This document shows positions 42,207-61,756 of a stretch of 64,000 nt of DNA, piece after piece. The stretch spans positions 1 to 64,000 of the IMG/VR virus record IMGVR_UViG_3300032265_003945, one strand, 5' to 3'. The notes beneath the pieces are model-generated. The model searched no databases, was not told the DNA's origin, and saw nothing but the letters and a program-made list of their open reading frames with translations. The DNA is from a virus. Each line of letters starts with the position of its first letter. The stretch's first letter is position 1. The translations under genes were made by a program, and so were the position numbers.

Positions 42207-43843
42207 TTATATCTTATTTTTAGATTTGAAGCATCGACTTCTCTATAGTCTGCGACAGCGGGTAAATCTGCCTTTATGTTTATTTTTGTTAGAGGGGACC
42301 GGGCAGAAGATGTATCTAATGACAAAGACTCATCAACTAATTCGTATACTGTTTGTAAATTTAATTCGTTAGAGAATTCTTCTATTTCCGAAGTCGCTTT
42401 AATTTGTATTTTTCTGCTATTTATCAATAAACTATAAGTTTGATTATCTCCAGCAAATAATTGGCTGATCTTTAAATCACAAGATGTATTTACAATAAAT
42501 ACATTTGGAGGTAAAATTTCATTAGAGTTGATCGACCAATTAAAATAATTATTCTCTCCACCTAGATTATAGGTTTCTTTCGTATACTCTTCTGTGTAGG
42601 GGATGCCTATGATTCTTTTAATTTGAATGTATCCATCTTTTATGTTAGTGTTGAATGCTGCCGGATCAATTTCATATATTCCATCATTATCCGCATTTGA
42701 TCCAAATATTTTGCATCTTATTGGTGGTAACCCGTAAGTTGCCGAATCAGCATTTAATTTATATAATATAAGCTGATATATTCTATATATTGAAGTATCT
42801 AAGAGGTTAGTTAATCTATCCTCTCCCTTTTTTATTGGCTGACTATTATCATAATTTGCTAGATTGCAAGTTCCATTTTTAACAACATAGTAGGGGTGGG
42901 GGATTGTGTAGTTAGCGTTATAGACTTTAGGTATCCATTCTATTCCGGAATAAGAAAGCTCGCTCCATACTCCATTTTCTAAGAACCATAAAGGCAATCC
43001 AAAAGAGTCTATTTTTGGAATGAGACCTGTATCATCTGTGTATAAATAATATGGACCTAATGGATAGGTGGGAGAAGGAGGGTTGTTGGGAGGCGAAGAA
43101 GAAGATGTTTCCCATGCCGGCCATTTATACAGCTCATTGGTTGAGTACAGTAAAGATATGTGCGCAGAAACTTCTCTTTTAATAGAATTATCTACGATAA
43201 ATTTAACAATTCCATTATCACTAGATATTTTATTTCTAAATTTCCAATAACAAACTGCGCTAAATCCTCGGGTAATAGTTATTGGGTTGTTTGAAAATGA
43301 TTTTTCTCCAACTGAAGAGTCAACAATAACTTCTTCGGTTTGATTTTTATTTCTTTCTACGGTCCAGCCTGACCCTCTTGACTTAACGACATCTTGCCAA
43401 TTACTAACGCCATCTACCGTATCATGGCTAAAATAATTATCTACAATTAAAGCAGAAGATAGATTAGGGCTTGGATTTTCTGTTGGAAGAAAATAACCCG
43501 AAATAAAAGATTTTATTGTTTGAGATATACCTCTAGATATATTATTATTAGAGATAACGCCTATATTGCTTATTTTGTTGTAAGTTACAATTCCATTATT
43601 TATAAATCCGCAGATGTCATTTTTAGTTGCGCTAAAAGATATTTGACTACCAAAAGACATTCCGTCAGTGTAAGTTTGTCCAGAAGAAAAAATATGATTA
43701 GAAGAAATCTGACAGCCATTTTGAAAACCTGACCTCCCTCTAACATTGATTCCTGCAACGGGAAATTGGCTGGAAGATATTTTTGTTAAATTATTAGGAT
43801 TTGCAGAAATATTATTGTTTGTTATTTTAAGAAGAGTTGTCAT
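42200..43843 (-). CDS. Hypothetical virion protein (possible continuation of the upstream beta-helix protein)
   Basis: The N-terminus continues Asn/Ile-rich beta-helix-like repeats, 11 bp after the upstream stop. Confidence 0.5.
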   Translation of the reverse strand: MTTLLKITNNNISANPNNLTKISSSQFPVAGINVRGRSGFQNGCQISSNHIFSSGQTYTDGMSFGSQISFSATKNDICGFINNGIVTYNKISNIGVISNNNISRGISQTIKSFISGYFLPTENPSPNLSSALIVDNYFSHDTVDGVSNWQDVVKSRGSGWTVERNKNQTEEVIVDSSVGEKSFSNNPITITRGFSAVCYWKFRNKISSDNGIVKFIVDNSIKREVSAHISLLYSTNELYKWPAWETSSSSPPNNPPSPTYPLGPYYLYTDDTGLIPKIDSFGLPLWFLENGVWSELSYSGIEWIPKVYNANYTIPHPYYVVKNGTCNLANYDNSQPIKKGEDRLTNLLDTSIYRIYQLILYKLNADSATYGLPPIRCKIFGSNADNDGIYEIDPAAFNTNIKDGYIQIKRIIGIPYTEEYTKETYNLGGENNYFNWSINSNEILPPNVFIVNTSCDLKISQLFAGDNQTYSLLINSRKIQIKATSEIEEFSNELNLQTVYELVDESLSLDTSSARSPLTKINIKADLPAVADYREVDASNLKIRYKW

Positions 43844-43854
43844 ATTTTTCTCTT

Positions 43855-46800
43855 TTAACTAGCAGATCCATCGTTAACATAAACGTCAATATATTGAGCA
43901 GTGTTATTATCAATAATCATACTTCCAGTTGTACTGGGCGTTCCTATAGGAGAGTTTCCATAATTATCTAATGTTAGGATGGCGTCGCAGGTGTTACCTT
44001 CAATTAATATATTTCCTCCATCTAATGATGGAGAAGAATAGGCGCTAATATAAGAAAAATTATTATTAGCTACAACAATATTTTCTGCGGTAAATCCAGA
44101 TTTATTATTTGTACCCGCCATAATAAAACCATTATAATTATAAGCGACATTGTTTTTAATAATTATATTGGAGAACTGATTGATTTTTGTTTGATCAGAT
44201 TCTCCATAATTTATGAAAGCAACCGCCGCATAAAATGTGTTAACTGGAGAAGTGCCTCCAATAAATCTGCACTTGTCAATTACAACAAAATCAATGATAT
44301 TTGGAGCGTTTGTACTTGAAGGTGCGGTAAAGCAAACGAGTGGAGGAAGTTGGTAGTCTTGGTTTTTATTGTTCCCACCATCTCTACAATATTCTGACTG
44401 CCCATTTTGAGGAAAGCTATTTTGAGCTAAGGTGCAATTTGTTATTTTAACATTGTTAATGCTGCCATTGGAAACTATCGCCCCGCCTCCAATGAATCTT
44501 ATTTTATCATCTTTATTAAAGTAACCTGCGGCAAAAAGAGGGGGAGTATAATTAACAAATGTATTATCTATAATAATATGATCTGCTTGAGAATTTTTGT
44601 ATCCTCCCCTGGGGTTTAATAGGATTCCTATTTTTGATTGGATAGAGTTAAACTTAGAATTAGTTATTGTATTTTCATAACTTTCTATAATTTCTCCTCC
44701 AGGAATATCATGACTATCGTCTCCCAAGACTAACCCATAAGCGTTAGTTACAATAGAGTTAACATTAAAGTCATTAATTATATTTCTACTTCCATAAACT
44801 CTAATTGCGGATCCCTCAGGAGAGCTACAAATGATGTTATTAATATTAAATTTATTAATAACATTATCACTTCCTATTTGAATAAAGTACTCAAATCCCT
44901 GATTAGAATTCTGATAAGCAGAGGAGGGCGAGAATGCATGAAAGAAACTGCTTGCTCCAAATAAGGTATTTTCAATTATATTTTTATTTCTTAAAGTAAA
45001 TACTGTTTGATGGCAGTTAACATCTGTGGCAAAAGTGCAGTTAATTAATTTATTATCGTCTTGAAGAACGAACCCTAACCCATTATTAGATTTCACGGAT
45101 CCAAATCCGCAACTTTCCAATACGTTATTATTATATCCTAATAATAAAGTATTGGAATTATCTTCTAATATAGCAAAAGAGCATTCAATAAATTTATTAT
45201 AAGATTGAATACCTATTAGCGTATTATTACTTGTTGTTGGTGAGTTCTTTATTTCTTCAAAAAAGCACTTTGAAAAATTATTAAAATCTATAATATAGAA
45301 AAAATTAATTCTGGAAAATATACAATTATTAAAATAATTACCACTATTAATTTGTAAAATCATCGAAGAGACAAGATCAGTAGAATCAAATTTAAAATTT
45401 ACATTTTCAAATGTACAGCTTGAATTATTTATTTGCAATATTTGACTATTTTCTAAAAATTTAAAATTTAAATCTTTAAAAGTAATATTAGATCCGAGCT
45501 GAAGTACTGGAGTTGTTCCCATAACAAATCCAGCTTCACTTCCTTCTCCTTGGAATACTGCGGGTAAATTAATTTGAGAAAAATCAAGCGTGCCAGAAGT
45601 ATTAATATTTCCTTTTATAGTAACATGATTGGAAATTTTACCATAATAATTAATCCAATTTTTAACCGCTTCAAAACTATGGAAGTAAGAAACGATATTG
45701 TTTTCAGCAGAAGTATCCGCCCAAGTAAAAGTATTATTTAAAGGTTCGCTATTAATGAATTTACGGACATCACTTAAAGAGATGCTATTGTATGTAACTC
45801 CATTAATTCCCGAGTTATAGTACCCATCAACTTCTAAAACATATAATGGAGTTAAGTCTTTTCTATTGTTAATTAGATCCTTGAAAAAGACACCATTAAC
45901 GGAATATGAATTCGCTAATCCGTTACTAACGGAAACATCGTAAACTTTAATGTCTCTGGCTGCACTTGGTGCTCCGGATTGTGAAGCTCCGTCCAACAGT
46001 GCTATGAATTGATATTCATAATTATCATTAGCGCATAGGGCCCAGAGCATATTATAGCTGTTGGCTCCAAAAATTTCTTTCACCGAGGGAACTTGTACTG
46101 AGGTATTGTTTAGTTGAACTAGTTTTCCGTTTACTAGAGAGATTCCTCCCTCTAGGAAATTAACACTTCCCGAGGATAGGGAAACATCTGTATCAAACCC
46201 TCTCACTACGCCATTGACATGAATTAATCTTTCAGGTGCAGAAATATAATTTAAAGCAGAAGTAGATAGGTCTTTTTCAGAGATATTTCCAAACTGCCTT
46301 AAATCAAGAATATGATCTACTATGTTGGTTGCGCCATTTAATTGCGCAGAAGCCAGTAACAACACTTCGTCGTCCAAGGCTATTGTTGGGAATAATTGAA
46401 TTGAGATATATTTATTTGAAATGTCTGAAACATTGACATTAATGTCAAAAATAAAATCAATATAGTCTATCCCTGTTTCATCATAGAAGCGAGTGACTTC
46501 GCCTTTGCGACCACTAACAAGAGGTCCTAAATTAGAGTCGCTTCCTGGCAAGCCATCTCTATTTAATAATCTGCCAGAAAATGTATTGTCATGTTGGCTA
46601 AAATTATCAATTAATAAAGTTATTTTGTTAACTGTTCCATAAGAGTATCCTCTTAATTTAGGAGAGACTCTCACTATATTAATTTTAGATAGCTCTGCGT
46701 TTGAATATAATGGAACGTTGCTGCCAACCGTGAAAACAGGGTCAGTAAGATTCATTCTTGCTCTTTCAAGAGCGAATGTTCTTCCTTCTTTATTTAAATA

Positions 46801-49146
46801 AACTTCAAAATGTCTTTTGAAGTTAAAATTATAAGCAGAATCAAAAGAGTTAACAGAATTGAATCCAACCGAATCGGAATTAAAATATAAATTGTAATGA
46901 TAACCGTCATTTGGGACAGCTAGGTCGCTAGGTATTGGTTGCGGGGGACTAATTCCGTTAGTGGCTATGCTTCCCTGAATGGCGTCATATACGGTAATAT
47001 CTGTTTGATCGGCGGAGGGTCCCCCGCAAATATTAAAGACAACAGACTTGATGGTAAATCTTCCAAAATTAATCTGATTATTATTTTGTAAAGACTGAAC
47101 AACTAGGGTTTTCCCTGGGGATATTCCACTAGAAGCAAGATTATAATTAACTCGATAAGTTGTCTCTATTCTATTAGGAAGCTGTTGTTGAGAGGCAATT
47201 GAAGAAATCCAATATCCATCTCCGTATTTATCTGTTACTTGATGAGGCTCGATGGCAAATTTGTCAGACTCTACGCCTACGCCATCTATGTAATAGTTAT
47301 TTCTTCTTAATGGAAGGAATATTTTTGTTGGAAAATTATAAGCGTTTTGAGCCGATGGATGGCTCCCAGTATATTCTGGGCTAGCCACATTGGATTTGTT
47401 CTTACCGAAACCTAAAGGATCGGAGGTAACTAATCCATCCGCATTGTAAGAGATAATGTTTTTGGGATAAACAAGAGAAACGTCTTTATACTTGGAGCCA
47501 TCTGAGGATAATTCTCCAGCAATAATAGAGAAAGCGGAATTATTGTAAGGTTCTGCGAGCATAATCCCAAATTGACCTTGATAAGAGAATGCTACAAAAC
47601 GATAATTGTAACCTACTTTCCTAAAGGCATCATTGGTCGATTTAATAACAGAATCAAGAGTGTATGCGCCAGGGGTAGCTCCTCGATTGCCTGTAACATC
47701 GATTGGAGCCATTTTGACTTGTTTTTCTGATGGATTGCCAGTGGGATACAAGACCAAGTAAAGATAATAATTATTGCTATTAAGCAAAGAAGGATCAAAC
47801 CCGTTGCCTAATGTAATCGCTCCTCTTGGATGACTAACTATTAAGCTAGGAATTTCTCCAATTTCATTTGCCCCTGATGCGTTCAATGTCTGTGCAGCAG
47901 AAACAGATAGAACTCCGTATTTATTTGTATTGAACAAGGGTCTATCTATGCGGGCATAACCATCGTAACCATCTGCGGACATTAAATTTTTGCCATCTAT
48001 TCTAACGGCATAAACAGAGGGAATTGCTGGATCGGCAGATTGAACATATTTTTTTTCTTTAACTAAAAATTCTGTTTGAATTAATCCGTAATTAATTCGA
48101 AGAACATCGCCTGCTTTAACTAAAGAAAATTGAGAGTCAAACTGAAACCCGCTATTCGCAGAAGTTTCTGGGAAAAATCTAATAATGTCATCGCCAGTAT
48201 TTGGATTGTCCCATACAGAAGTTGCGTTATTGTAAGATAAATAAGCTTTAACGGCGGTTGAAGGAACTACTGGCGGACCGTAACCATCTACAGTTAAAAT
48301 AGAAGATCTAGATGCTCTAGATATTCCTCCAGTAAATAAGTTTTGAATTCTACTTCCGAGTAGAAAAATGCTATTTTGATCAATAAAATCTGCAAATTTT
48401 TGCAAGCTATTTGCATCTAAAGGTATGACATTATAGCTGGAAGTATTTAAATAAATGCCTGCGGCTGTATGAGCGAAGTTAGATGGGTAGCTATCTCCCC
48501 CCAGGGTATACACTGGGAAGACAGATCCGCCAAAATATCCATCTGATTTTTGATGAGAAACATAATCATTATTAATATCGCTTAATAAAGAATAAGCGTT
48601 TGTATTATCTCTAAACTTTGATCCAAAATTTATTGGAAGGGGAGGATTGTTTGGATTAAATTTATTAGTTAAATACTGATTAGAGTTAAAAGCAACATCT
48701 ATATGAGATAATTCGTGGCGATAGGCAGTTCCCGCTAAATGTGGATTGAGCTTCACGCCTGTACTATCTACCCAGCCGAGAGCTTTATTCACTCCTAAGG
48801 ATAAGTGCGTAATGTAATCATACAAATCTTGTGTAGAGTGATCTAAGGATAATTTATGTTCTTTAATTTGAGCATTATCAGCAATGTATCCGTCATAAAT
48901 TGGAAGAGTAACAAATCCTAATAAAGTTAGAACAGATGGTTTAATGCAACCATCTGGATTTAGGGTGACACCTAGCCTTGCAGCTATCGACCCTGCAGAT
49001 CCTGAAGCGCCAATACCGATCTCTTCTTCGATGTTAAGTACGGCGTCACGAAGAGCGTTAATAGCTTCTCCCCCTATTTCTGTTAAATTATTGTTTACGG
49101 GAGGAAGCGTAACGTCATTATCAATTTTATTAGGAAAATCGCTCAT
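43855..49146 (-). CDS. Large virion protein with C-terminal right-handed beta-helix repeats
   Basis: N-terminal FPNKID..INALRDAVLNIEEEIG fibre-anchor-like motif, and C-terminal repeats of the N.F.NC.F type. Confidence 0.65.
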   Translation of the reverse strand: MSDFPNKIDNDVTLPPVNNNLTEIGGEAINALRDAVLNIEEEIGIGASGSAGSIAARLGVTLNPDGCIKPSVLTLLGFVTLPIYDGYIADNAQIKEHKLSLDHSTQDLYDYITHLSLGVNKALGWVDSTGVKLNPHLAGTAYRHELSHIDVAFNSNQYLTNKFNPNNPPLPINFGSKFRDNTNAYSLLSDINNDYVSHQKSDGYFGGSVFPVYTLGGDSYPSNFAHTAAGIYLNTSSYNVIPLDANSLQKFADFIDQNSIFLLGSRIQNLFTGGISRASRSSILTVDGYGPPVVPSTAVKAYLSYNNATSVWDNPNTGDDIIRFFPETSANSGFQFDSQFSLVKAGDVLRINYGLIQTEFLVKEKKYVQSADPAIPSVYAVRIDGKNLMSADGYDGYARIDRPLFNTNKYGVLSVSAAQTLNASGANEIGEIPSLIVSHPRGAITLGNGFDPSLLNSNNYYLYLVLYPTGNPSEKQVKMAPIDVTGNRGATPGAYTLDSVIKSTNDAFRKVGYNYRFVAFSYQGQFGIMLAEPYNNSAFSIIAGELSSDGSKYKDVSLVYPKNIISYNADGLVTSDPLGFGKNKSNVASPEYTGSHPSAQNAYNFPTKIFLPLRRNNYYIDGVGVESDKFAIEPHQVTDKYGDGYWISSIASQQQLPNRIETTYRVNYNLASSGISPGKTLVVQSLQNNNQINFGRFTIKSVVFNICGGPSADQTDITVYDAIQGSIATNGISPPQPIPSDLAVPNDGYHYNLYFNSDSVGFNSVNSFDSAYNFNFKRHFEVYLNKEGRTFALERARMNLTDPVFTVGSNVPLYSNAELSKINIVRVSPKLRGYSYGTVNKITLLIDNFSQHDNTFSGRLLNRDGLPGSDSNLGPLVSGRKGEVTRFYDETGIDYIDFIFDINVNVSDISNKYISIQLFPTIALDDEVLLLASAQLNGATNIVDHILDLRQFGNISEKDLSTSALNYISAPERLIHVNGVVRGFDTDVSLSSGSVNFLEGGISLVNGKLVQLNNTSVQVPSVKEIFGANSYNMLWALCANDNYEYQFIALLDGASQSGAPSAARDIKVYDVSVSNGLANSYSVNGVFFKDLINNRKDLTPLYVLEVDGYYNSGINGVTYNSISLSDVRKFINSEPLNNTFTWADTSAENNIVSYFHSFEAVKNWINYYGKISNHVTIKGNINTSGTLDFSQINLPAVFQGEGSEAGFVMGTTPVLQLGSNITFKDLNFKFLENSQILQINNSSCTFENVNFKFDSTDLVSSMILQINSGNYFNNCIFSRINFFYIIDFNNFSKCFFEEIKNSPTTSNNTLIGIQSYNKFIECSFAILEDNSNTLLLGYNNNVLESCGFGSVKSNNGLGFVLQDDNKLINCTFATDVNCHQTVFTLRNKNIIENTLFGASSFFHAFSPSSAYQNSNQGFEYFIQIGSDNVINKFNINNIICSSPEGSAIRVYGSRNIINDFNVNSIVTNAYGLVLGDDSHDIPGGEIIESYENTITNSKFNSIQSKIGILLNPRGGYKNSQADHIIIDNTFVNYTPPLFAAGYFNKDDKIRFIGGGAIVSNGSINNVKITNCTLAQNSFPQNGQSEYCRDGGNNKNQDYQLPPLVCFTAPSSTNAPNIIDFVVIDKCRFIGGTSPVNTFYAAVAFINYGESDQTKINQFSNIIIKNNVAYNYNGFIMAGTNNKSGFTAENIVVANNNFSYISAYSSPSLDGGNILIEGNTCDAILTLDNYGNSPIGTPSTTGSMIIDNNTAQYIDVYVNDGSAS

Positions 49147-49196
49147 AGTGAAACCTTGCCAATGAAGCTTTGAAAATACTCTAACAAAATATCAAT

Positions 49197-49562
49197 TTAT
49201 TGATTATTTTGCTGAGGATCTTCTTTTTTATTTTTTGGGATCTGTGCCACAATCATAGATTTAGCTACTCTATAAACTAACCCAGAAAGCATGCCTGCGA
49301 CAAGTCCAAAGAATACTCTCCCACTTAGGGTAGAGACTACTTCTGGAAAAGGATATTTGCTAATTAATCCAGCAACAACGCCGCCAAGAATTACTGGTAA
49401 AATAGGCATTATTAAGTCCCCCCATAATAATTCTAATTTTTTTAAAGAATAATAATTAATTATAAAATATCCAATTTTTCTAACCACAAAAGTAATTGCC
49501 GCAATTCCTAGACATAACATTACGAATTGCCAACTTAGAAGTGTTTGAAGAGCTGTGTCCAT
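49197..49562 (-). CDS. Holin-like small membrane protein
   Basis: 121 aa with three hydrophobic helices and a charged C-terminal tail. Confidence 0.55.
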   Translation of the reverse strand: MDTALQTLLSWQFVMLCLGIAAITFVVRKIGYFIINYYSLKKLELLWGDLIMPILPVILGGVVAGLISKYPFPEVVSTLSGRVFFGLVAGMLSGLVYRVAKSMIVAQIPKNKKEDPQQNNQ

Positions 49563-49576
49563 ATTTTACCTTTATT

Positions 49577-51721
49577 TTAGCTTAGTAGTATTGAAAGAGT
49601 TACGTTTGTGGGAAATGCAGAGGTTGAGCCAATAAAAGAAACAATAACCGATAAATTATCTCCAGCGTTAACGGGGAAAGAGTGCACAACATCAGAACCA
49701 GAAGTGGCAGTTGTTAACGTAGTGGTTGTTAAAGTTGTAGCTACCCCGTTTTTATAAACTGTATAGATCACTCTGTCTGCTCCGGTTCCAGCAGTTTGAT
49801 TTAAGTAAAGCTTGCTCACTGTTCCGCTTACCGGTACGGTTATTTTCTTTTCCGCTATATTATTGCCTCCATATGGTCCACCAGGAGGTAAATAAGTTGA
49901 AGAAGGATTATATGTAATGGAAGACGCTCCAAAAAGAAATACTGTCCCTATTCCAGAAGAGCCAGCAGCTCCAGTCGCCCCAGTGGCACCATTTGCGCCT
50001 GCCGCACCTGCACCAGTAGCGCCGGTAGCCCCTATAGTCCCTGCAATACCCGCAATACCCGCAACGCTAAAAGTCCAAGGAGCGGATATGTTTCCATAAG
50101 TTCCAGAAGATGAGCTAGTATTATCAACAAATACTGTTAAAGTATTACCGCTAAAAGAAGTAATTACACCTTCCATATAGGTAGGACCAATTGCAGCTCT
50201 AACTCTTGTTCCAGCAACAAAAGAAGTTTGAGTGTCTAGTAAATTAGTTGTCCAAGTTCTATAATAAGGCAGTCCACCTGTAGCTAAAGAAATGGCAGTA
50301 GGAGAATTCAATCCTCGATAACCTACCCCATCCGATCCAGAAGTTCCTGTTGCCCCAGTTGCCCCTGTGGTGCCTCCGCCAGGTCCGGTAGCTCCGGTAG
50401 CGCCAGCTGCTCCGGTTGCCCCTGTAGCCCCCGAAGAAAAGTGAGCTAAGCTCCATTCTCCACTTCTGAAAACTAAAGTATCTCCCTCATTTGGAGTTCT
50501 GACTAAATAAGAGAATGGATTGTCGTACAAACCAACAACAGTTTGTAAGGTTGAGCTACCAGAAAGATTGTTTCCTGGGGTAAAATAATTTCCTACCGGT
50601 GCAAGATCCCATTGGTTGGATCTAAACACCAAAGTATCTCCATTCATAGGGTGTTCAGCTGTAGGAGAAATTGGTTGATTATAAATTCCGACAACCGTAG
50701 GTCTATCGCAGGCGCCTCCCAAATCGTTAGTTAAAGTGATTGCGCCTTTATTGTAACCATCGGCGCAAGGTAAATCGGATGGTTGCCAGAAACTACCATC
50801 AAGAGGATCTTCTACGTATCTTAAAAATTGTCCATTAAATGGAATTTGGTCTCTTAATGGAATTAACCGTAATCCAACAACTTTGGCTCCTCCTGAATTT
50901 CCTGGAGACAAGTCTTCGGTTAAGGTAATGGCGCCACGAGTAGTACTAGTTGCTAGCGGTATTGGTCTCGATCTCCAAGAACCGCCTTCAAACAATAAAG
51001 CGTCGAATTCGCTAGGGCAATCCGGAGCAATTGGTTTGCACTGTATGCCAACTACACAAATACAGTCTGCGGACAAACCAAGATCGCACCCTAATTTAAT
51101 TACTCCGTAATTATTGGCGCTGGCAATAGGCAAATTGCTATTAGTCCACTCAGATCCGTCCCATTTTAAAAATTGATTTGAAGTTACTGGTTCGTTAAAT
51201 TTTAGTGAATATCCCTGTAACTTATTTACCTGCAAATAATCGGCAAGTCCACCAATGTCTCCATTGTTCGCCAATCCTGCTATTTTTACTGTTCCAAAAA
51301 CTTGATCGCTTGCTGGCGGAACTTGAGTGCTTGGAGGGGACGGAGTCCAATAACCGTTATTATCATCCCAAGTTAAAACATTACCATCGCTTGGGGCTGC
51401 GTTTAAAATAGAGTAGCCTTGTATTTTGGTAACTCTTGGAGAGTCTGCAGTTGATGCCGGTCCCGCTAAATCGCCCGCTAACTTTAAAATTCCTTTAATG
51501 GTCTGAGTAGCATCTGGTATTGTTGGGGGAAAAGCAATATCAGCTATTTTTTCAATAGCTGATTGCAAATTAGAGGCGACATATCCATCAATATTGACCT
51601 GGGGCGAAAGGAGTAGACCATCCGCATGATGATTAAAATCGTACCCATCTATGTGCTTTTGAAAATCATAACGATCGGTAGCTAACCGACCTACACCGGG
51701 CGTATATTTAAGATTAGTCAT
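49577..51721 (-). CDS. Fibre protein with tandem repeats of about 60 aa and collagen-like segments
   Basis: About six GxIxLxxDL..VxGxxxxP repeats, two GAT(Gxx)n runs and a small beta-sandwich C-terminus. Confidence 0.8.
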   Translation of the reverse strand: MTNLKYTPGVGRLATDRYDFQKHIDGYDFNHHADGLLLSPQVNIDGYVASNLQSAIEKIADIAFPPTIPDATQTIKGILKLAGDLAGPASTADSPRVTKIQGYSILNAAPSDGNVLTWDDNNGYWTPSPPSTQVPPASDQVFGTVKIAGLANNGDIGGLADYLQVNKLQGYSLKFNEPVTSNQFLKWDGSEWTNSNLPIASANNYGVIKLGCDLGLSADCICVVGIQCKPIAPDCPSEFDALLFEGGSWRSRPIPLATSTTRGAITLTEDLSPGNSGGAKVVGLRLIPLRDQIPFNGQFLRYVEDPLDGSFWQPSDLPCADGYNKGAITLTNDLGGACDRPTVVGIYNQPISPTAEHPMNGDTLVFRSNQWDLAPVGNYFTPGNNLSGSSTLQTVVGLYDNPFSYLVRTPNEGDTLVFRSGEWSLAHFSSGATGATGAAGATGATGPGGGTTGATGATGTSGSDGVGYRGLNSPTAISLATGGLPYYRTWTTNLLDTQTSFVAGTRVRAAIGPTYMEGVITSFSGNTLTVFVDNTSSSSGTYGNISAPWTFSVAGIAGIAGTIGATGATGAGAAGANGATGATGAAGSSGIGTVFLFGASSITYNPSSTYLPPGGPYGGNNIAEKKITVPVSGTVSKLYLNQTAGTGADRVIYTVYKNGVATTLTTTTLTTATSGSDVVHSFPVNAGDNLSVIVSFIGSTSAFPTNVTLSILLS

Positions 51722-51749
51722 AATACCTTATTTAATATGATATTATCAC

Positions 51750-53339
51750 CTAAATTAATATTTCATGAGTATGCCCTAACGCTTCGATAACAACTAGCTT
51801 ATTAGCCGAAGCATCCCAAACAACCTGATGATTGTGTGCTTGAACAATGCTGCTTAGCTGAGAAAATTTATCTGGGCTTTGTTCATTGGTAACAATTTCG
51901 TGTTTATGAGGTCCAATGCCAAAAGCATTGGTAATGGAAGTATTTACCTTTGCTGGCAAAGTAGCTGTATTTCTAAAAGCATTAATTTGATAAGCAATGT
52001 CAAATTTACGAATTCTTTGCACTCTCATTCTTTGAGCACTCTCTAGCTGTGTAACAGTTCTGTTTCTATTAACCGATAAAACTTCATATCTGAATTCTTC
52101 ATTGCCGTCTTGATCAAATCGAATTAAAATATCCCTATCTTTAACAGTGGGGACGGTTAATGTCCAGCATTCGGTAATCAACTCAGATTCTAACCCAGCT
52201 TCTTGCATTTTTAAATCTTCATCAGCGGGGCTGAAGCGAACCATAATTCTACCATCGGAGCGACGAGGGTTGAAATATTGTTCGTAGCCCATCACAAATT
52301 TAGTCCCCAGGCAGCGAACGCACCTGTCATCAGGGTACTCGCTTGTCGGCAATACACAGCTACAAACAATCCCGGTTCTTTGCCTTTTAATTAAAACAAC
52401 CGGCTCACCAGTAATGCTAAGCAATATCTCCTGTCTTTGCAAAATTCTTTCTTGCAAAGGAATTCCTCTTAGTACTCTCCCTACCCCATCATAACCATCG
52501 GCACAAAACTGCTCTCCGCTCAAATAACTTCCAACGCACTCTCCTGAAATTAACTTAACTGGATCGGTTCTATGCCACCCATCGTAATCATAAGAATTAA
52601 AGTCGACATTGTAAGCATCGCTCCCACTCAAATCAGTGGTTAACAAATCTTTAGTGACTTGTTTGTATCCATCTGCAAGAGTAAAGGCATTATGATCCAA
52701 ATCAAATCTACTTTGACAAGGGTAAATTCTATCAAACGAAGAATATTCTTTTCCGGCAAAGAAAGTTACTGCAGGATTCCAATAACCATATCCATCATAT
52801 CCGTCTAAATTATGAATTCTTGCTTCGGTATTCCAGTACCCTCTTTGGCTCGCTGAAGTTAATATCAAATTGTTATTTATTCGATCTACTGAAAGATATT
52901 GAATTAGTTCAATGCCAATTTTAATTACACCGTAATCTGGAAAGTCAGTGCTATCTATTAAAGGAATTAACAATTGAGAGCTTGTAATATCTTCTCTTAG
53001 CAAGGTTTCTGGATAAACTTTTAAATTATTAAAAGAACTGGGTAGCTTGGACAAATCCGTTACAACCGGATTGTACTCTACTGGGCGAACAGAGAAATAA
53101 TAAAGCTGACCTGGAGTAAGATCACTTATATCGGCGCTCAAGTAACCGTCATAAGAAATAAATTTAACACCTTCAGAAAAAACATTTTCTCGCACAGTGC
53201 TGTAATATAAATTATATGCAACGCTGTAACCATCAAAATTAGAGAAAGCTTTAAACCACTTGGTAATGACAGAATAACCATCCCCGTTGGAAATGGTAGC
53301 GTCTATCCCGACATCAGTGTTTATCGCATAATAAATCAT
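51750..53339 (-). CDS. Putative neck/head-closure protein with FN3-like N-terminus
   Basis: YNLYY..LTPGQLYYFSVR (FN3-like), GEPVVLIKR..CSC..CVRCLGT and WTLTVPTVKDRD..RYEV, with a His-rich C-terminus. Confidence 0.6.
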   Translation of the reverse strand: MIYYAINTDVGIDATISNGDGYSVITKWFKAFSNFDGYSVAYNLYYSTVRENVFSEGVKFISYDGYLSADISDLTPGQLYYFSVRPVEYNPVVTDLSKLPSSFNNLKVYPETLLREDITSSQLLIPLIDSTDFPDYGVIKIGIELIQYLSVDRINNNLILTSASQRGYWNTEARIHNLDGYDGYGYWNPAVTFFAGKEYSSFDRIYPCQSRFDLDHNAFTLADGYKQVTKDLLTTDLSGSDAYNVDFNSYDYDGWHRTDPVKLISGECVGSYLSGEQFCADGYDGVGRVLRGIPLQERILQRQEILLSITGEPVVLIKRQRTGIVCSCVLPTSEYPDDRCVRCLGTKFVMGYEQYFNPRRSDGRIMVRFSPADEDLKMQEAGLESELITECWTLTVPTVKDRDILIRFDQDGNEEFRYEVLSVNRNRTVTQLESAQRMRVQRIRKFDIAYQINAFRNTATLPAKVNTSITNAFGIGPHKHEIVTNEQSPDKFSQLSSIVQAHNHQVVWDASANKLVVIEALGHTHEILI

Positions 53340-53450
53340 ATTATTATCTCAGAATATCGAAAGATATTGTTAACAATTTAACTTGAACTTTATCTCGACA
53401 AACTCTTGGGACATATATATAGGGAGAGTAATTATTCTCTACTATAGGGG

Positions 53451-53972
53451 TTAGACTTTGCTCATGAGAACATCTTTCTTCTCTTTTCTTTCTTTTTTAC
53501 TATCTATGTCATGATGGTCTAACAAACCCTCTACGTACTTCTCTGCTTGATTGTCTCCAAATTCTCTAGAAATATATTCTATTTGATTTTGAAAACCCTC
53601 TTGTTCATCTGGGTTGTCTAGGTATTCCCCTTCGTCTGCGCCTTTCGTTGGCTTGTTTTTAAAACATTGTTGCAGATAGTGGGAAACTTCATGAATTAAG
53701 TACCCGTAATCTTTAAAGAAATCTCCATCCGCCAATAATTTATAATTTAAAGTAATTATTCCGTGCGAAGTAGTGGCGGAAACTTCAATATCTCCAAATC
53801 TCATTGGGATTAAATCTAAAAAAGAAATATCAACGCCAAAGTCTTGAAAAACTTTTTTCATAACTTCATCAGTTTTTAAAAACTTTTTAGCTCGATTAAT
53901 TATATTTAAAAGAGATTTAGGAGACCTCTTTTTTATTTCTTCGATGGTATATTTCTTTTTACCCTGGATCAT
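53451..53972 (-). CDS. Zincin-like (HExxH) metallopeptidase domain protein
   Basis: LIHEVSHYLQ with downstream YLDNPDEQEGF. Confidence 0.65.
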   Translation of the reverse strand: MIQGKKKYTIEEIKKRSPKSLLNIINRAKKFLKTDEVMKKVFQDFGVDISFLDLIPMRFGDIEVSATTSHGIITLNYKLLADGDFFKDYGYLIHEVSHYLQQCFKNKPTKGADEGEYLDNPDEQEGFQNQIEYISREFGDNQAEKYVEGLLDHHDIDSKKERKEKKDVLMSKV

Positions 53973-54002
53973 AGCTTAATGCGAATAAATTAATATAATT
54001 TT

Positions 54003-54376
54003 ATGAAAAATACTTATTATGTAGCTTTATCAAAAATTGATGGCAAAGGAGTTTTTGCCGACCAATATTTTGTAACCGGAGATTATATTGGAAAATGTTT
54101 AATTTCTATTTTAAAACAAGATAAAAAAGAAGATAAAGAGTATGGTTATAGTGATGTTTCCGAGAGATTAGGAACTTTGGTGCAAAAAAAACTAAATTAG
54201 AAAAATATTTAAACCACAGCCCTCAACCCAATGCAGAATTATTTTTTCATCATGGACTGGAGTTACATTTAAAAGCAATTGCTGATATTGCTAAAGATGA
54301 AGAAATTACAGTAAATTATGGAGATGCTTTTCCTAAGATAGATCAGTTGCAGATAAAGTTTATTAAATTAATCTAA
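54003..54376 (+). pseudogene. SET-domain methyltransferase gene split by a -1 frameshift in an A8 tract
   Basis: Frame 1 gives SKIDGKGVFA. The -1 frame after 54184-54191 gives KYLNHSPQPN..AIADIAKDEEITVNYG, with a stop at 54376. Confidence 0.8.
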
Positions 54377-55063
54377 TAAAAATCCTGGATGGATAACTAC
54401 AGTACATTCTGATTGCTCGGTTCCTCCTTCAGATCCAAGAACAAAAGCTTTATTAGTAGGAACTTCAAATATTTTATCATTATTATCTACTATAGAAGAA
54501 AATCCTAAGCCACCACCACCACCACCACCCCAATTTCCAAATCTTGTTTCACAATGACCGGTATCTAAATTAATTATAGCTACATATCCTCTTTTGTAAT
54601 CATAGATGGATTGATTTTGAGGATTAACCACATTAGATTTAATTAATCTTACAGTTCTTTTTTTATATTTAATATTTTCTTTTAAAGCTTTTTGTAATTT
54701 TTTAGATAAACTAGATGTTGCGACTCGGTCGCCCGACCATTTATTAAATTTAGAGTCAGCGGGAGCTTCTTTTAAACTTTCAAAAAAATCATCTTCTGTT
54801 TTATCTACTTTTGTTTTATCTACTACAACATCTTCATGGAATTTTTTAAGTACTTCCCAGGCTTCATTTATATCAACGATATTTTGCGATCCGCCTAAAT
54901 CTGAGCGATCTGGATGAAATTGAAAAGATTTTTTCTTATAAGCTCTTTTTATTTCTTCTAGACTAGCATGAAGAGAGACTTCTAAAATTTGAGCAGCCCT
55001 TTCAGGACTCATAGAAGCTAATTTAAAAAATAAATTTATTTTATCAAATAGTTTTTTAGACAT
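54368..55063 (-). CDS. J-domain (DnaJ-like) protein
   Basis: IKRAYKKKSFQFHPDR..INEAWEVL, with the HPD motif intact. Confidence 0.85.
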   Translation of the reverse strand: MSKKLFDKINLFFKLASMSPERAAQILEVSLHASLEEIKRAYKKKSFQFHPDRSDLGGSQNIVDINEAWEVLKKFHEDVVVDKTKVDKTEDDFFESLKEAPADSKFNKWSGDRVATSSLSKKLQKALKENIKYKKRTVRLIKSNVVNPQNQSIYDYKRGYVAIINLDTGHCETRFGNWGGGGGGGLGFSSIVDNNDKIFEVPTNKAFVLGSEGGTEQSECTVVIHPGFLLD

Positions 55064-55079
55064 GATTTAATATTAAATA

Positions 55080-55478
55080 ATGCCCAATATAGAAAAAATA
55101 ATTTACAAAAAATAAAAAATAAAAGAAAAAGATAAACAGAAAAGTAAAAAGTATTATCAAAAAAATAAACAAAAAATTCTTAGTCTAGAAAAAGAAAAAT
55201 ATTTAAATAATAAAGAAAAAATACAAGAAAAAAATAAAATTTATTATGTAAATAATAAAGAAAAAGTTTTATTGTCAAGTAAGAAATATTATTTAAATAA
55301 TAAAAATAAAATTAATAATTATTATAAAAATTATTATAAAAATAAAAGAAAAGTAAATGTTAATTTTAAGATAAAAACAGCAATTTCTGCCAATATAAGT
55401 TTTTATTTAAAAAATAATAATTTAAGTAAAAATAAAAAATCTACATTAAAATATTTAAATTATTCCATTGAAGAATAA
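55080..55478 (+). pseudogene. Truncated HNH-endonuclease remnant
   Basis: KIKTAISANISFYLK..SKNKKSTLKYLNY closely matches the HNH at 56246. There is an in-frame TAA at 55113 and the catalytic half is absent. Confidence 0.75.
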
Positions 55479-55572
55479 AAACCAACGAGAATTAAACTTT
55501 ATCTCTGGCAGATCTATCTCATGATTAAGTGCTGCATTTAAACCTGCATCTATTTCTAGATTACACCTGTTA
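55476..55572 (-). pseudogene. TnpB (IS200/IS605-family) C-terminal remnant
   Basis: Minus-strand translation NRCNLEIDAGLNAALNHEIDLPEI resembles the zinc-ribbon end plus RuvC-III motif DxDxNAAxN. Confidence 0.6.
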
Positions 55573-55689
55573 CTTTCTCTTCGGGCAAAGAAAGATATTG
55601 CAGAAGGAGAAGAGATTACGGTAGAATATGGAGACGCTTTTGAAAAAATAGATCAGCTGCAAAGAGATCTTGTTGCAAAAATAAAATAA
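55573..55689 (+). pseudogene. Second SET-domain C-terminal remnant
   Basis: LSLRAKKDIAEGEEITVEYGDAFEKIDQLQ, paralogous to the C-terminus of the split SET gene. Confidence 0.75.
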
Positions 55690-56229
55690 TTATGTTGTTG
55701 GAATCTTATTTTTACTTATATTTGCCAATTGTTTTTTTACTTCTTCGGCTTGTTGATCTGTCATTTTCGATGGAGCGGCGGGAGATTGTGTGGGGCGAGG
55801 AGCTGCCACAGCTCCTCCCGGTAAGCTGGCAACCAATCTTTGTAAATTTTCAATTGGACCCATCCTAACGTCCTTGCTAACATATTCTTCGCCCATAGAA
55901 GATAGCACCAGCGGTACTTTGATATTTTGCTTGTTTCCTTTTAGGACATTAATAAACGCATTTATCTTATAATTTAAGGAAGTTTTATTAATTAGCGAAG
56001 CATTAGATGCTTCCAATATATCTTCAATATAACCTTTAATTATATTGGGTAATTTTGAAGGAGGAACATTGGCTTTTTGAGAAATCACTTGCCCGCAATA
56101 GTAAGAAGAATATCCAGATAATTGCTGAGCTGCTTGTTTGATTTGCTCAACGAGCGGTGAAGGTTGGCTACTTTGAGCTAATTTAATTTCAAATCTATTG
56201 GCTAATTTAATTGCTTTGCTAATATTCAT
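55690..56229 (-). CDS. Hypothetical protein with N-terminal KLANRF..KLA motif
   Basis: Likely start MNISKAIKLANRFEIKLAQ at 56229, which avoids overlap with the divergent HNH gene. Confidence 0.6.
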   Translation of the reverse strand: MNISKAIKLANRFEIKLAQSSQPSPLVEQIKQAAQQLSGYSSYYCGQVISQKANVPPSKLPNIIKGYIEDILEASNASLINKTSLNYKINAFINVLKGNKQNIKVPLVLSSMGEEYVSKDVRMGPIENLQRLVASLPGGAVAAPRPTQSPAAPSKMTDQQAEEVKKQLANISKNKIPTT

Positions 56230-56245
56230 GACTATATTCAATTTT

Positions 56246-56947
56246 ATGAGCATATTAAAAACTTGTAATAAATGTAAGAAAGAAAAAAATTGCAATAATT
56301 TCAACTTTTCTCAATTCAAAAATAAATTCGGTAGATACAAAGAGTGCATCTCTCACTACAATAAAAAATATAGAGAAGATAATTTAGATAAAATTAAAGA
56401 ATCGGACAGAAAAAGCTCTATGGCTTATTACTCTAAAAATAAAAAAGAAATTTTAGATAAATACAATAAAAAGCACTACAACGGGACGAGACAAAGATTT
56501 GCCAGATCTAAACAATTTAGCATTAAAAATTATAATAAAGAATATCAAAAAAATAAAAGAAAAAATAACATTCAGTTTAAATTAAAAACAAACATATCAG
56601 CAAATATTAATTTTTATTTAAAAGTTAACGGTAAAAGCAAAAATAAAAAATCAACATTAAAACATTTACCATACAAGGTAGACGAGTTAAAGATTCATTT
56701 AGAATCTCTATTTCAGCCTTGGATGAACTGGAATAATTATGGCAAATACAATCCGAAAACTTGGGATGACGGCGACTCTGCCACTTGGACTTGGCAAATA
56801 GATCATGTCATCCCTCACTCCACTTTTAATTATTCTTCCATGGAAGATGCGGACTTTAAGAGATGCTGGTCGTTAAGTAACCTAAGACCCTACTCATCCA
56901 GAGATAATTTTATGGACGGAGTGAGGCGGGTTAGGCATCTTAAATAA
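56246..56947 (+). CDS. Free-standing HNH-type homing endonuclease
   Basis: MSILKTCNKCK start and WQIDHVIP..CWSLSNLRPY. Confidence 0.8.
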   Translation: MSILKTCNKCKKEKNCNNFNFSQFKNKFGRYKECISHYNKKYREDNLDKIKESDRKSSMAYYSKNKKEILDKYNKKHYNGTRQRFARSKQFSIKNYNKEYQKNKRKNNIQFKLKTNISANINFYLKVNGKSKNKKSTLKHLPYKVDELKIHLESLFQPWMNWNNYGKYNPKTWDDGDSATWTWQIDHVIPHSTFNYSSMEDADFKRCWSLSNLRPYSSRDNFMDGVRRVRHLK

Positions 56948-56955
56948 CGCTGAGG

Positions 56956-57858
56956 TCAAAGTATTTTTCGTTCTTTAAGATGCCTAAGCCTTCGTACCGC
57001 AGGGTTGAAACCACTGCTCATGCTCCAGACACCTAAGCCCTTTGGTTGAGGTCTTAGGCTATTTTTTATATATTTAAGTTTATCCCAATAATTGGTTAGC
57101 AGAGTTCCATATTGACTGTTCAACAAATCGCTGACGCCAGGCAACTGGAATGAAATCCCGTTATCGGTGACGTTAATCTCGTTTCCTTTCTCGATTAACG
57201 CACGGCTCGCTAATGCATATAAAGTTGCCCCTTCGACCAATATTTCTCCAAATTGATCTATGAACATATCGTCATCAAATTGAAAATAGGTAAAATAGGG
57301 AACTTGATTGAAGTCCCAGAGGGCTCCTGCTAACATGGTAACTAACTGGTCTACGGAAAAGATGTCGCAAGTAACGTAAACTGTATTTCCATATTTATCT
57401 GTGGTCTTGACTTTCCCCGAGCTATTTAATCTTCTTTTTAACAATCTAAGTAGTTTGTTAATATTTTTAATGGCTATCTGAGAATAATCAAATTCGGGCG
57501 TATCACCCAAATGAGCATATCCATCGCTATTTATTGCAGGGACATCCGTAGCACTAACGATAAAAGAAAAATTAGTCTCTACTCTAAAGCCATTAACAAA
57601 ACCCACCCAAATATCGGAATAAACACCCAAGGGTCCATTGTAACCTACCGTATAAACAAAAGAATACTTTCCCGTGTCCACTTTAGCCACACCAGCAGAA
57701 GTGGGTCCAAAAGACACTAATCCTGTCGGATCTACTACCGTGATAGTGGGAAAAATATCCGTATCAATAGGGTTTCCTTGTGCGTCCTTAAATTGGACGG
57801 TTAAGTTAACTTGATCGTTTAAGTCAAGCATTTCCCCACGGGCTTTGATAGTTGCCAT
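56956..57858 (-). CDS. Putative head-tail adaptor/neck protein with N-terminal Ig-like domain
   Basis: Start MATIKARG with a GAGG RBS; a beta-rich N-terminus followed by helical FSVDQL..ALWDFN..TDNGIS. Confidence 0.55.
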   Translation of the reverse strand: MATIKARGEMLDLNDQVNLTVQFKDAQGNPIDTDIFPTITVVDPTGLVSFGPTSAGVAKVDTGKYSFVYTVGYNGPLGVYSDIWVGFVNGFRVETNFSFIVSATDVPAINSDGYAHLGDTPEFDYSQIAIKNINKLLRLLKRRLNSSGKVKTTDKYGNTVYVTCDIFSVDQLVTMLAGALWDFNQVPYFTYFQFDDDMFIDQFGEILVEGATLYALASRALIEKGNEINVTDNGISFQLPGVSDLLNSQYGTLLTNYWDKLKYIKNSLRPQPKGLGVWSMSSGFNPAVRRLRHLKERKIL

Positions 57859-57892
57859 GGATAAATTCCTCTTTATTGATATATGTTTTTTT

Positions 57893-58699
57893 ATGCCTGC
57901 AAAAATAAGTGAAGATGTTTCTAAACAAATATGCAATTTATATTTATCCGGAGAAAAGGGAACTAATCTTAAAAAAATATTTAATTTAAATATTAAAACT
58001 ATTTACAGTATTTTGTTTAGGAACGGAATTCAAATTAGGTCGCCGGAAGATTCTAAAAGAAAATTTAATTTTGATCAAAATTATTTTGATCAAATTGATT
58101 GTCCCAGAAAAGCTTATTGGCTTGGCTTCATAGCCGGTGACGGCGGGATCGTAAGAAATTGTTTAAGATTTAACCTATCTAAACAAGATATTAATATTTT
58201 AAAACAGTTTAAAAAAGATTTAAAATCAGATCATAAAATAGAGCAATATTGCAATAATATTGTTAGTTTCACTTTAACTTCTAAAAAATTAAAAGAATCC
58301 TTAGCGCAATGGGAAATTTATCCCTCTAAATCTAAAATATTATCTCTTTGTTCAAAAATTCCAGATCAATTTATTAATTATTATTTATTAGGGATTTTTG
58401 ATGCAGATGGTTGCTTTAGCGTAGATAAGCGGCGAGGAATTAGATATTGCATGATCGGCTCCACTATATCTATGTTGCAAATTCAAGAAATTTTAATTAA
58501 AAAATGTGGAGTAAATAGAGTAAAGCTTCACTCGCACCCAAGCGAAGGAATATCTCAACTTCATTATTCTGGAAATCGTCAAGTTAAAAAAATTGTAGAT
58601 TTTTTATATAAAAATCTAGATGTTTGCTTAGATAGAAAATTTAAAATCGCTTCTGATTTTTATTCTTTAGATCCCTTAAAAAATTACACTGCGCTATAA
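57893..58699 (+). CDS. Free-standing LAGLIDADG homing endonuclease
   Basis: KAYWLGFIAGDG and YLLGIFDADG, an N-terminal HTH and LDRK near the C-terminus. Confidence 0.88.
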   Translation: MPAKISEDVSKQICNLYLSGEKGTNLKKIFNLNIKTIYSILFRNGIQIRSPEDSKRKFNFDQNYFDQIDCPRKAYWLGFIAGDGGIVRNCLRFNLSKQDINILKQFKKDLKSDHKIEQYCNNIVSFTLTSKKLKESLAQWEIYPSKSKILSLCSKIPDQFINYYLLGIFDADGCFSVDKRRGIRYCMIGSTISMLQIQEILIKKCGVNRVKLHSHPSEGISQLHYSGNRQVKKIVDFLYKNLDVCLDRKFKIASDFYSLDPLKNYTAL

Positions 58700-59013
58700 A
58701 TTCCATACGGAGCACTTACCACTAATTGATAAATAATTTCTTGCACGGCAAGAGTAAAAGGATCGATATAGGTGACGTCAACTAAGTACGAACCTACTGC
58801 AGAAGCTCCGGTGGGAATAGTAAAGTAGGAAACATACAGTCCTGTAGCTACTTGAACCATCGGGCCAGTGTAACCATCTATTAACTCTAAGGCAGGATTC
58901 CAGATATTAGCTACTCTCGGAAGCTCCGAACAATCCATGCGATAACCGTCTGGACCAGTCGTCTCTAATACGATAGAGGCTTTTTGTCCCGGAGTGTATT
59001 GTAAAATGTTCAT
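58684..59013 (-). CDS. Small Ig-like virion protein
   Basis: Beta-rich (TGLYVSYFTIP..GSYLVDV), similar in pattern to the N-terminal domain of the 56956 ORF. Confidence 0.5.
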   Translation of the reverse strand: MNILQYTPGQKASIVLETTGPDGYRMDCSELPRVANIWNPALELIDGYTGPMVQVATGLYVSYFTIPTGASAVGSYLVDVTYIDPFTLAVQEIIYQLVVSAPYGIYSAV

Positions 59014-59015
59014 GT

Positions 59016-59327
59016 CTACCAAGCCTCGATACGAACAGAAATGCTAGGTCCGCCAGACTTGACTCTTAACCAAATCATGGATACAGTTCTGTTATCAAAA
59101 ATTATTCCTTTGGTAAGATCAGCAGAGTTTAACTCTGTATGAACCGTGTTGCCATTAAAAGAAACCTCAACTACTCCCGATCCTTCATTTAAAAATAAAA
59201 TACCGTTGGTAGAGAAAGTAATGATGGCGCTGGGATAATCTGAAAAAGTTGCGCTACTAACGTCAATTCTTTGAAAGAAATTAAAATCTTTTCCCTGAGT
59301 TTTTTTACCAATTTCATAGAAAGCCAT
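59016..59327 (-). CDS. Small beta-rich virion protein
   Basis: NEGSGVVEVSFNG and an AGGTG RBS; first gene of the minus-strand structural run. Confidence 0.5.
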   Translation of the reverse strand: MAFYEIGKKTQGKDFNFFQRIDVSSATFSDYPSAIITFSTNGILFLNEGSGVVEVSFNGNTVHTELNSADLTKGIIFDNRTVSMIWLRVKSGGPSISVRIEAW

Positions 59328-61658: not shown

Positions 61659-61666
61659 GAATAAAT

Positions 61667-61756
61667 TGGCGGAATTGGGCGGATTCGAACCGCCGGTACG
61701 GTTTCCCGTACACTGCATTTCCAATGCAGCTCCTTAAGCCACTCGGACACAATTCC
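61667..61756 (-). tRNA. trnS: tRNA-Ser(GGA)
   Basis: Acceptor stem GGAATTG/CAATTCC, anticodon arm CTGCA-TTGGAAA-TGCAG, long variable arm, TTCGAAT T-loop, G discriminator and encoded CCA. Confidence 0.95.

Follow-up and report, generated by a model that had tools for sequence, protein, structure and literature searches.

DGY enrichment in the tail proteins of an uncultured huge-phage group: a probable recognition motif and a candidate glycosyltransferase reader

Why does a single tripeptide recur in so many of the virion proteins of one phage? The question is raised by a 64,000-nucleotide stretch of the IMG/VR virus record IMGVR_UViG_3300032265_003945 (positions 1 to 64,000, here called the window), in whose structural proteins the word Asp-Gly-Tyr (DGY) keeps returning. 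A preliminary description, drawn from the letters of the window, had proposed that DGY is an acceptor site for a cluster of two GT2 glycosyltransferases (GTs), a GT4 and a dehydratase, or for another modifier. The window is 64 kb out of a 78-kb virus contig; almost all of its genes lie on the minus strand, and its content is that of a myovirus tail module, including several very large proteins without an assigned family (Table 1). Its neck-type protein of 529 amino acids (aa) has about 900 homologues at 55-80% identity, every one of them metagenomic, and a tblastn search with this protein returned zero matches among cultured phage records. Because the IMG/VR loci that encode 529-aa homologues (n=80) sit on contigs that reach 480 kb and are in several cases complete, the window is, to judge by these homologues, a piece of an uncultured huge phage genome. 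The DGY enrichment is real, extreme, specific and clade-wide: the word stands 15-25 times above chance in neck, fibre, sheath and baseplate proteins of the phage and its relatives. Taken together, DGY probably behaves like a short motif that is read by some shared factor, and it is the identity of this factor that divides the readings weighed below.

Within the window, the five virion proteins first singled out (3,444 aa) hold 21 DGYs where composition predicts 0.89, in agreement with the earlier estimate of fewer than one for about 3,400 aa, and a recount reproduced exactly the numbers given for the single proteins (7, 8, 3, 2 and 1). Residue shuffles of the five (n=5,000) gave a mean of 0.88 and a maximum of 6, never 21, and a first-order Markov expectation of 6.0 still falls short of the observed count. 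DGY ranks first among the 8,000 tripeptides in this set (Poisson P ~6e-22) and first again over all 41 open reading frames (ORFs). Tyr follows 21 of the 40 DG dipeptides and Asp precedes 21 of the 34 GY dipeptides; DGF and EGY are absent, while DGW and NGY occur once each. When structural and non-structural genes are set against each other, as had been proposed, 30 DGYs fall in the 24 ORFs of the virion module (3.1 expected) and none in the 16 non-structural ORFs (0.6 expected), a depletion that is not significant. The GTs, nucleases and methyltransferase were rightly described as free of the word. The further DGYs are indeed spread over other tail proteins, but they number nine and not eight, which brings the total to 30.

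Could the excess have arisen by chance, from a DNA-level repeat or from one duplicated domain that was inherited? This is scarcely conceivable. In its favour it can be said that the tripeptide was picked after being seen, and nothing else; the rank and P value above argue against it, as does the reproduction of the excess in 99 independent loci. A search of the DNA for GAYGGNTAY gives 30 hits on the minus (coding) strand, every one of them in frame 0, and a single hit on the plus strand. Since all sites are in frame and their codons are mixed, the signal is one of the protein level, as the preliminary description had held, and a DNA-level repeat is ruled out. The flanks contain few lysines and otherwise have neither a consensus nor any shared similarity, which rules out a longer hidden motif or a repeated domain.

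The same word dominates the relatives. The first 80 related loci contain 1,146 DGYs versus 84 expected, and pooling 99 high-load loci (474,300 aa, 1,203 distinct proteins) gives 1,327 versus 91, a 14.6-fold excess next to 4.3-fold for the runner-up tripeptide. Near-miss words stand at 0.8x (NGY), 1.3x (DGF), 0.9x (EGY), 1.0x (GDY) and 0.9x (DYG), and YDG and GYD are raised only about twofold, a modest rise to be expected from tandem DGYDGY runs. At conserved sites D-G is followed 768 times by Tyr and 12 times by Phe, and Gly after a residue other than Asp 34 times by Tyr and 20 times by Phe (counts that ignore kinship); the Asp and the Tyr hydroxyl behave there as one unit. The interchangeability of Asn with Asp and of one aromatic residue with another that is expected of a turn motif was not found. 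DGY thus has the traits of a short motif with strict residue needs that is over-represented in a defined set of proteins.

This set can be outlined by family. Per 1,000 aa, DGY reaches 16.8 in the 112-aa family, the highest value, followed by 7.3 in the 529-aa family, 4.3 in the sheath, 3.3 in the 264-aa, 3.1 in the 326-aa and 2.9 in the 1763-aa family, above a background in the relatives of about 0.2. Within the tail module of three complete DGY-rich genomes (G001, G017 and G043) the word is concentrated, with an enrichment of 5.6-13.9x. The sheath family holds 7 versus 0.7 expected in DGY-rich genomes and 3 versus 0.7 in a low-load sister clade described below; for the distal fibre family the figures are 12 versus 1.0 and 9 versus 1.2. 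Unmarked families shared with low-load genomes show 1.0-1.4x (12 versus 8.7 expected in DGY-rich genomes, 9 versus 9.1 in the sister clade), so that DGY is not avoided outside the marked families. Literature searches on a DGY motif in a phage or tail-fibre context found no publication. Outside the tail module, G017 encodes a Kelch-type propeller protein (L199:12133-13368) with DGY inside its repeat consensus, IIDGYxYLFGG, and with a DGYDGYDGY insertion in one propeller loop; the same protein is found in G001, split over L249:19431-20000 and L250:1-642 (G001 159431-160642).

Where, then, do the sites sit? In the 529-aa protein all seven DGYs lie N-terminal to the neck core. The chain begins with an FN3 domain and a middle domain, continues with a stopper/terminator-like neck domain at residues 292-455 and ends in a part with three HxH pairs; the fold matches are FN3 (Z ~10), phage 812 neck chain 8q01_S (Z 10.2) and the phage T1 stopper-tail terminator 9l0e_A (Z 10.1). 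Among 105 homologues, the site at residue 20 is kept in 81%, that at 179 in 72%, at 182 in 86%, at 223 in 100% and at 281 in 84%. The 1763-aa protein keeps the sites at 287 (46 of 59 homologues) and 643 (49 of 59), the others being lineage-specific, including four of the eight in the window; its homologues average 5 DGYs. The column of residue 138 in the 326-aa protein reads DGY in 53 of 61 homologues and residue 122 of the 264-aa protein in 33 of 37, while the sites of the 714-aa fibre show no positional conservation. The sheath DGYs lie N-terminal to the sole Pfam-matched stretch, the C-terminal sheath domain (830-917), and those of the baseplate J-like protein lie in a C-terminal extension outside the Baseplate_J domain (67-279). 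Neighbouring sites often stand close together: 111 of 848 pairs are spaced 3-5 residues, DGY(x0-2)DGY is common, and tandem runs such as DGYDGYGY and DGYxDGYxDGY are seen. In an AlphaFold2 model of the 529-aa protein, with a predicted local distance difference test score (pLDDT) of 80, the sites lie in loops just before strands; in a model of residues 1-800 of the 1763-aa protein (pLDDT 69) they are at loop-to-strand junctions or in segments of pLDDT <50. In these predicted models of single chains, the DGYs fall in accessory domains.

These positions lend themselves to a different reading, in which DGY is a structural or assembly motif: the Asp-Gly would make a tight turn, the Tyr would open a strand, and the hairpin tip would dock on a common partner, so that the word is read by binding. 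At least 9 of the 14 modelled sites are at a strand start or no more than 3 residues before it, the location expected of a beta-turn, and at several sites DGY stays in place in 80-100% of homologues that are 40-60% identical. Conceivable partners are a phage chaperone or a protein of the cement, whisker or fibre-network kind, and small conserved proteins, free of DGY throughout their families, are indeed encoded among the marked genes (49197-49562 and 53451-53972). However, turn propensity is insufficient to account for the word. NGY is a better former of type I' turns than DGY, yet it stands at 0.8x, and the tandem DGYDGYDGY loop insertions are hard to see as docking hairpins. We regard docking as possible though doubtful, also in view of the behaviour of whole lineages described below.

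Alternatively, the DGY loops could be ligand-binding patches, that is, weak sugar or metal sites or a multivalent stickiness for host polysaccharide or matrices, comparable to Tyr-rich antibody loops. The accessory domains whose loops carry the sites do include FN3, Kelch-type and LamG-type ones, fibres are marked as well, the distal ones with tandem runs, and a host switch could account for lineage-wide changes. But stickiness by composition would raise all orders of Asp, Gly and Tyr, of which only DGY is enriched, and neck, tail-completion and sheath proteins are marked as well, far from the receptor-binding tip. This makes the explanation quite unlikely.

An argument for a shared reader is the way in which the mark changes between lineages. 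In a tree of the 529-aa family whose tips are labelled with the DGY load of each locus, a low-load sister clade comprises 32 loci, 31 of them below 4.5x and one at 6.8x, with DGY-rich clades flanking it on both sides. Its homologous virion proteins have an overall DGY value of 2.2x, equal to that of DGT, and no other outlier tripeptide; the sister clade thereby sets a structural baseline for DGY of about twofold, another respect in which turn propensity falls short. In three complete genomes of this clade, the two giant fibres encoded just before the GT4 orthologue nevertheless hold 26 DGYs versus 3.9 expected, mostly in tandem runs and as the top-ranked tripeptide (P 1.6e-13), and the 529-aa, sheath and 326-aa families hold 8 versus about 1.5. 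Since DGY is kept in the fibres and in some families of the sister clade, the mark is ancestral to the group. Deep within a DGY-rich clade, a nested clade (L045, L082, P0129, P0136 and P0141) has 0-1 DGY in its 529-aa family, the former sites now reading DGT, DDT, NGY or DDE, and in L045 the neighbouring 326-aa, 112-aa and 1170-aa proteins are without DGY too. P0141 is encoded on a 169,721-bp contig; scans of viral and genome contigs yielded no long contig for this DGY-less clade, and a metagenome scan gave fragments only. A turn motif should be kept wherever the fold is kept, but P0136 and P0141 are full-length homologues at 39-44% identity that hold no DGY: the nested clade swapped every site and yet kept the fold, which speaks against docking as well. 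Because the extent of the mark shifts by lineage in several unrelated proteins at once, a shared reader is favoured over a local structural need.

If the word is read by a shared factor, the reading we prefer is as follows. In a large group of uncultured huge phages, DGY would be a self-contained three-residue tag on turn or loop segments of outward-facing accessory domains; it would be carried by proteins of the neck, sheath, baseplate and fibres and read by a single shared factor during virion assembly. The most likely reader would be the conserved GT4, encoded directly after the distal fibre genes, which would recognise the Asp two residues before the Tyr and put the first sugar on the Tyr hydroxyl. 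The variable genes downstream of it may then extend the glycan, and the end product would be a sugar coat on the tail. What the sequences show is the enrichment with its residue specificity and its confinement to the virion module, the loop positions, the joint changes within lineages and the place of GT4 beside the fibre genes; that a reader exists, that it is an enzyme, that this enzyme is GT4 and that the Tyr is its acceptor are all steps that we infer. Tyr glycosylation started by GT4 is possible, but we propose it tentatively; the same reserve, or slightly more of it, is due to the entire scheme, a cytoplasmic Tyr O-glycosylation system with a D-G-Y sequon in which GT4 starts, variable islands extend, and lineages have tuned or dropped the coat.

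The case for GT4 is one of gene position. In seven of seven genomes compared, baseplate J, giant fibre, distal fibre and GT4 follow one another in this order, and then comes a variable sugar island, so that a phage GT gene directly adjoins structural genes in each of them. A GT4 orthologue is present in all 10 DGY-rich genomes and in all 7 further genomes of at least 90% completeness, the low-load clade included; it lies 43-58 kb downstream of the 529-aa gene, and three contigs without it end before that position. As GT4 is present in every near-complete genome, its link with DGY is one of synteny, and on position it is a reasonable candidate reader. Several observations pull the other way. 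GT4 shows no co-variation with tenfold differences in DGY load, and it resembles generic GT-B enzymes such as glycogen and sucrose-phosphate synthases and no known protein glycosyltransferase. The window fibre that adjoins it has no DGY, being the sole DGY-free member of its family among the seven genomes. Many sites keep their position, and this is precisely the point at which a two-residue beta-turn leads into a strand; such a placement fits a structural or contact role too. Lastly, the accessory GTs are dispensable, as they are absent from complete DGY-rich genomes.

The last point decides the fate of the other cluster members. GT2b is absent from G001, G005 and G014, GT2a from these three and G043, and the 343-aa gene from G008 and G043, all of them complete and DGY-rich, which rules out the three genes as required partners. 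Relatives without them keep the DGY enrichment, an outcome that the preliminary description had itself named as counting against its proposal; what has stood of that proposal is the motif-like behaviour of DGY, and what has fallen is the part given to the GT2s and the 343-aa gene. There is a weak trend, made up of two independent contrasts, in that the three complete genomes with a 529-aa locus but without both GT2s carry the lowest loads (8-12x versus 13-18x). The 343-aa protein found no family match in Pfam, NCBIfam, PDB sequences or the ESM Atlas, and its former label as a dehydratase accordingly finds no support there.

The genes after GT4 look like a lineage-variable glycan pathway tied to the fibre module. 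In the window the extending enzymes would be the GT2s, and in the sister clade those of the island of G032, where GT4 is followed by four or five GT1-family enzymes, NeuB, a CMP-transferase and a KDO-8-P-synthase-like gene; judged by its gene families, this island appears to be a nonulosonic-acid or KDO-type glycan pathway attached to a huge-phage tail-fibre module. It spans L209:4139-14303 (G032 84-94 kb), with a CMP-sugar cytidylyltransferase and a KDO-8-P/DAHP-synthase-family enzyme among its products. A ThyA-type enzyme is present in two and absent from three of the five complete genomes with an island, and its absence from these three weakens DNA glycosylation as the island's role. The Fpg/Nei glycosylase of the island was found, among six relatives compared, only in G017 and G001.

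But could the reader be encoded elsewhere? An enzyme outside the GT cluster, of phage or host origin, may modify the Tyr or Asp of DGY in another way, be it by phosphorylation, nucleotidylation, sulfation, hydroxylation to DOPA, or Asp isomerisation or methylation. The evidence at the level of the motif is the same as for glycosylation, and the window encodes a kinase-like ORF (62599-64044); at E 1e-4 no homologue of it turned up in G001, G017 and G043, all three complete and DGY-rich, and it was dropped as a candidate. The same happened to an MprF-C-like gene at 60447-61205, which gave no blastp match (E 1e-5) among the ORFs of the 80 related loci and none in three short contig fragments. Its 252-aa product resembles MprF in the C-terminal aminoacyl-transferase domain (LPG_synthase_C, E 5e-13), and the gene adjoins that of a DNA methylase. 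When the gene content of the three DGY-rich genomes was compared with that of three complete low-load genomes, 11 families occurred only in the former: an RNA ligase, a trigger factor, DnaJ, an HNH protein, an FAD-oxidoreductase-like protein, a cold-shock protein, IF-1, unknowns and two structural proteins. The FAD-oxidoreductase-like protein could suit another modification; among the 11, however, there is no GT and no recognisable protein-modifying enzyme, and the comparison, three genomes against three, is confounded with phylogeny. Overall, a modifier outside the cluster is unlikely. G001, G017 and G043 each encode the trigger factor, a full-length DnaJ, IF-1 and the cold-shock protein (in G001 at L254:2177-3424, L254:18240-19253, L261:19451-19663 and L257:7354-7581), and blastp found none of the four in three complete sister-clade genomes. 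For docking, the trigger factor and full-length DnaJ count as a point in favour, being present in the three DGY-rich and in none of the three low-load genomes.

Table 1. Marked proteins of the window and the genes of the glycosyltransferase cluster, with the DGYs of each protein
Feature	Coordinates	Strand	Remarks
529-aa neck-type protein	51750..53339	-	7 DGY, residues 20, 36, 64, 179, 182, 223, 281; includes DGYDGYGY
1763-aa virion protein, no known family	43855..49146	-	8 DGY, residues 85, 202, 287, 392, 395, 643, 747, 1107; includes DGYDGY
714-aa collagen-like tail fibre	49577..51721	-	3 DGY, residues 25, 45, 321
112-aa protein	58684..59022	-	2 DGY
326-aa protein (labelled 'adaptor' in the preliminary description)	56956..57936	-	1 DGY, residue 138
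264-aa protein (labelled 'tail completion' in the preliminary description)	40403..41197	-	1 DGY, residue 122
547-aa protein	42200..43843	-	1 DGY, residue 403; missed in the preliminary tally
922-aa tail sheath	36945..39713	-	2 DGY, residues 145, 413
560-aa protein	20311..21993	-	1 DGY, residue 26
1367-aa baseplate J-like protein	15713..19816	-	2 DGY, residues 888, 925
2367-aa giant fibre, LamG-like domain	8613..15716	-	2 DGY, residues 1777, 2197; orthologues 2-8
1312-aa distal fibre	4665..8603	-	0 DGY; orthologues 2-7; found in every relative, always directly upstream of GT4
GT4-family glycosyltransferase, GT-B fold	3531..4619	-	Glycos_transf_1, Glyco_transf_4
GT2	2851-3573	-	variable island after GT4
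Fpg/Nei-type DNA glycosylase	1967-2800	-	TIGR00577, E 5e-47, full-length; lies between GT genes
343-aa protein, no detectable family	934-1965	-	variable island
GT2	130-933	-	variable island

Some features of the marked proteins and of the tail module deserve mention in their own right. The 529-aa protein has an invariant CxC...CxxC cluster (C326, C328, C340 and C343; residues 326-343) and three invariant HxH pairs (H478/480, H502/504 and H523/525; residues 478-525), the kind of metal sites found in phage fibre tips. The 714-aa fibre owes its designation to a weak, sub-threshold Pfam collagen-repeat match (E 1e-4) and to tail-fibre PHROGs, and the distal fibre (4665-8603) contains a dockerin-type calcium-binding repeat (PF00404, E 1e-6, residues 590-615). 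Past the end of the window, an ORF that runs off the contig (G000:C1:76666-78264) has one DGY and, at its start, a long collagen-like (Gly-Ala-Thr)n repeat. Endonuclease-type genes are scattered through the tail module (36276-36926, 39807-40406, 41205-42206, 56198-56947, 57845-58699 and 61206-61724), with one LAGLIDADG gene and one HNH gene among them. Four paralogues match the same 14 ORFs of relatives, with helix-turn-helix or endonuclease VII-like matches, and since the family reaches up to 9 copies in G001, it looks like a set of mobile homing endonucleases between structural genes.

What would follow from the preferred reading, Tyr glycosylation started by GT4? Were DGY a sequon, virion glycosylation would have its first defined acceptor motif, and phages their first cytoplasmic system for glycosylating proteins on Tyr. 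Its scale would be considerable, as the DGY mark is carried by hundreds of environmental phages of 300-480 kb, and a three-residue tag for site-specific Tyr glycosylation could be useful in glyco-engineering. The sequon hypothesis is directly testable with two small recombinant proteins. If DGY is a docking motif instead, it would still point to an unknown common component of huge-phage tails.

Finally, we would like to set DGY beside systems that resemble it in one respect or another. Recurrent turn motifs are well known, among them the Asp-box (S-x-D-x-G-x-T-W) and Asx/type I' beta-turns, and Asp-Gly words are found at the hairpin tips of non-homologous folds. Such motifs tolerate Asn in place of Asp and stay with homologous folds, whereas NGY is not enriched here and whole lineages drop the word.

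The nearest parallel among phages is that of mycobacteriophages, whose virion glycans are linked to Ser/Thr. Their virions are glycosylated by phage-encoded glycosyltransferases, with glycans at the C-termini of capsid and tail-tube subunits (Freeman et al. 2023, as cited in PMC12619734). The likeness lies in phage GT genes beside structural genes, and in the product proposed here, a sugar coat made in the cytoplasm on virion proteins. The placement of the glycans on C-terminal tails of capsid and tube proteins has no counterpart: the DGY sites are found inside the chains, between 4% and 93% of protein length, and belong to neck, sheath, baseplate and fibre proteins (capsid and tube genes being outside the set). 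Unlike in mycobacteriophages, the candidate acceptors are internal Tyr residues in a strict D-G-Y, in tail proteins of huge myoviruses.

In its form DGY recalls the sequons of bacterial glycosylation systems. Campylobacter PglB recognises D/E-X-N-X-S/T, and the general O-glycosylation motif of Bacteroidota is D-(S/T)-(A/I/L/V/M/T). Like both, DGY is very short, has its indispensable acidic residue one or two places ahead of the acceptor, and is scattered over many unrelated targets. The general O-glycosylation system of Bacteroidetes is the subject of PMC8698959. These systems are extracytoplasmic and use lipid-linked glycans on Asn or Ser/Thr. For DGY, the transferase would have to be soluble and cytoplasmic and the acceptor a Tyr.

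Tyr itself is an acceptor in bacterial S-layers, self-assembling surface proteins in which beta-Glc or beta-Gal is linked to Tyr (PMC2943079). Two to four such sites are known per S-layer protein, and transfer is thought to be carried out by an O-oligosaccharyltransferase during secretion (PMC2943079). This review describes no motif of the DGY type, and since virions assemble in the cytoplasm, an en-bloc membrane transfer of the S-layer kind would seem unlikely for DGY. Yet the S-layers establish the chemistry that the proposed tail coat would need: prokaryotes are able to form stable O-glycosidic bonds to Tyr.

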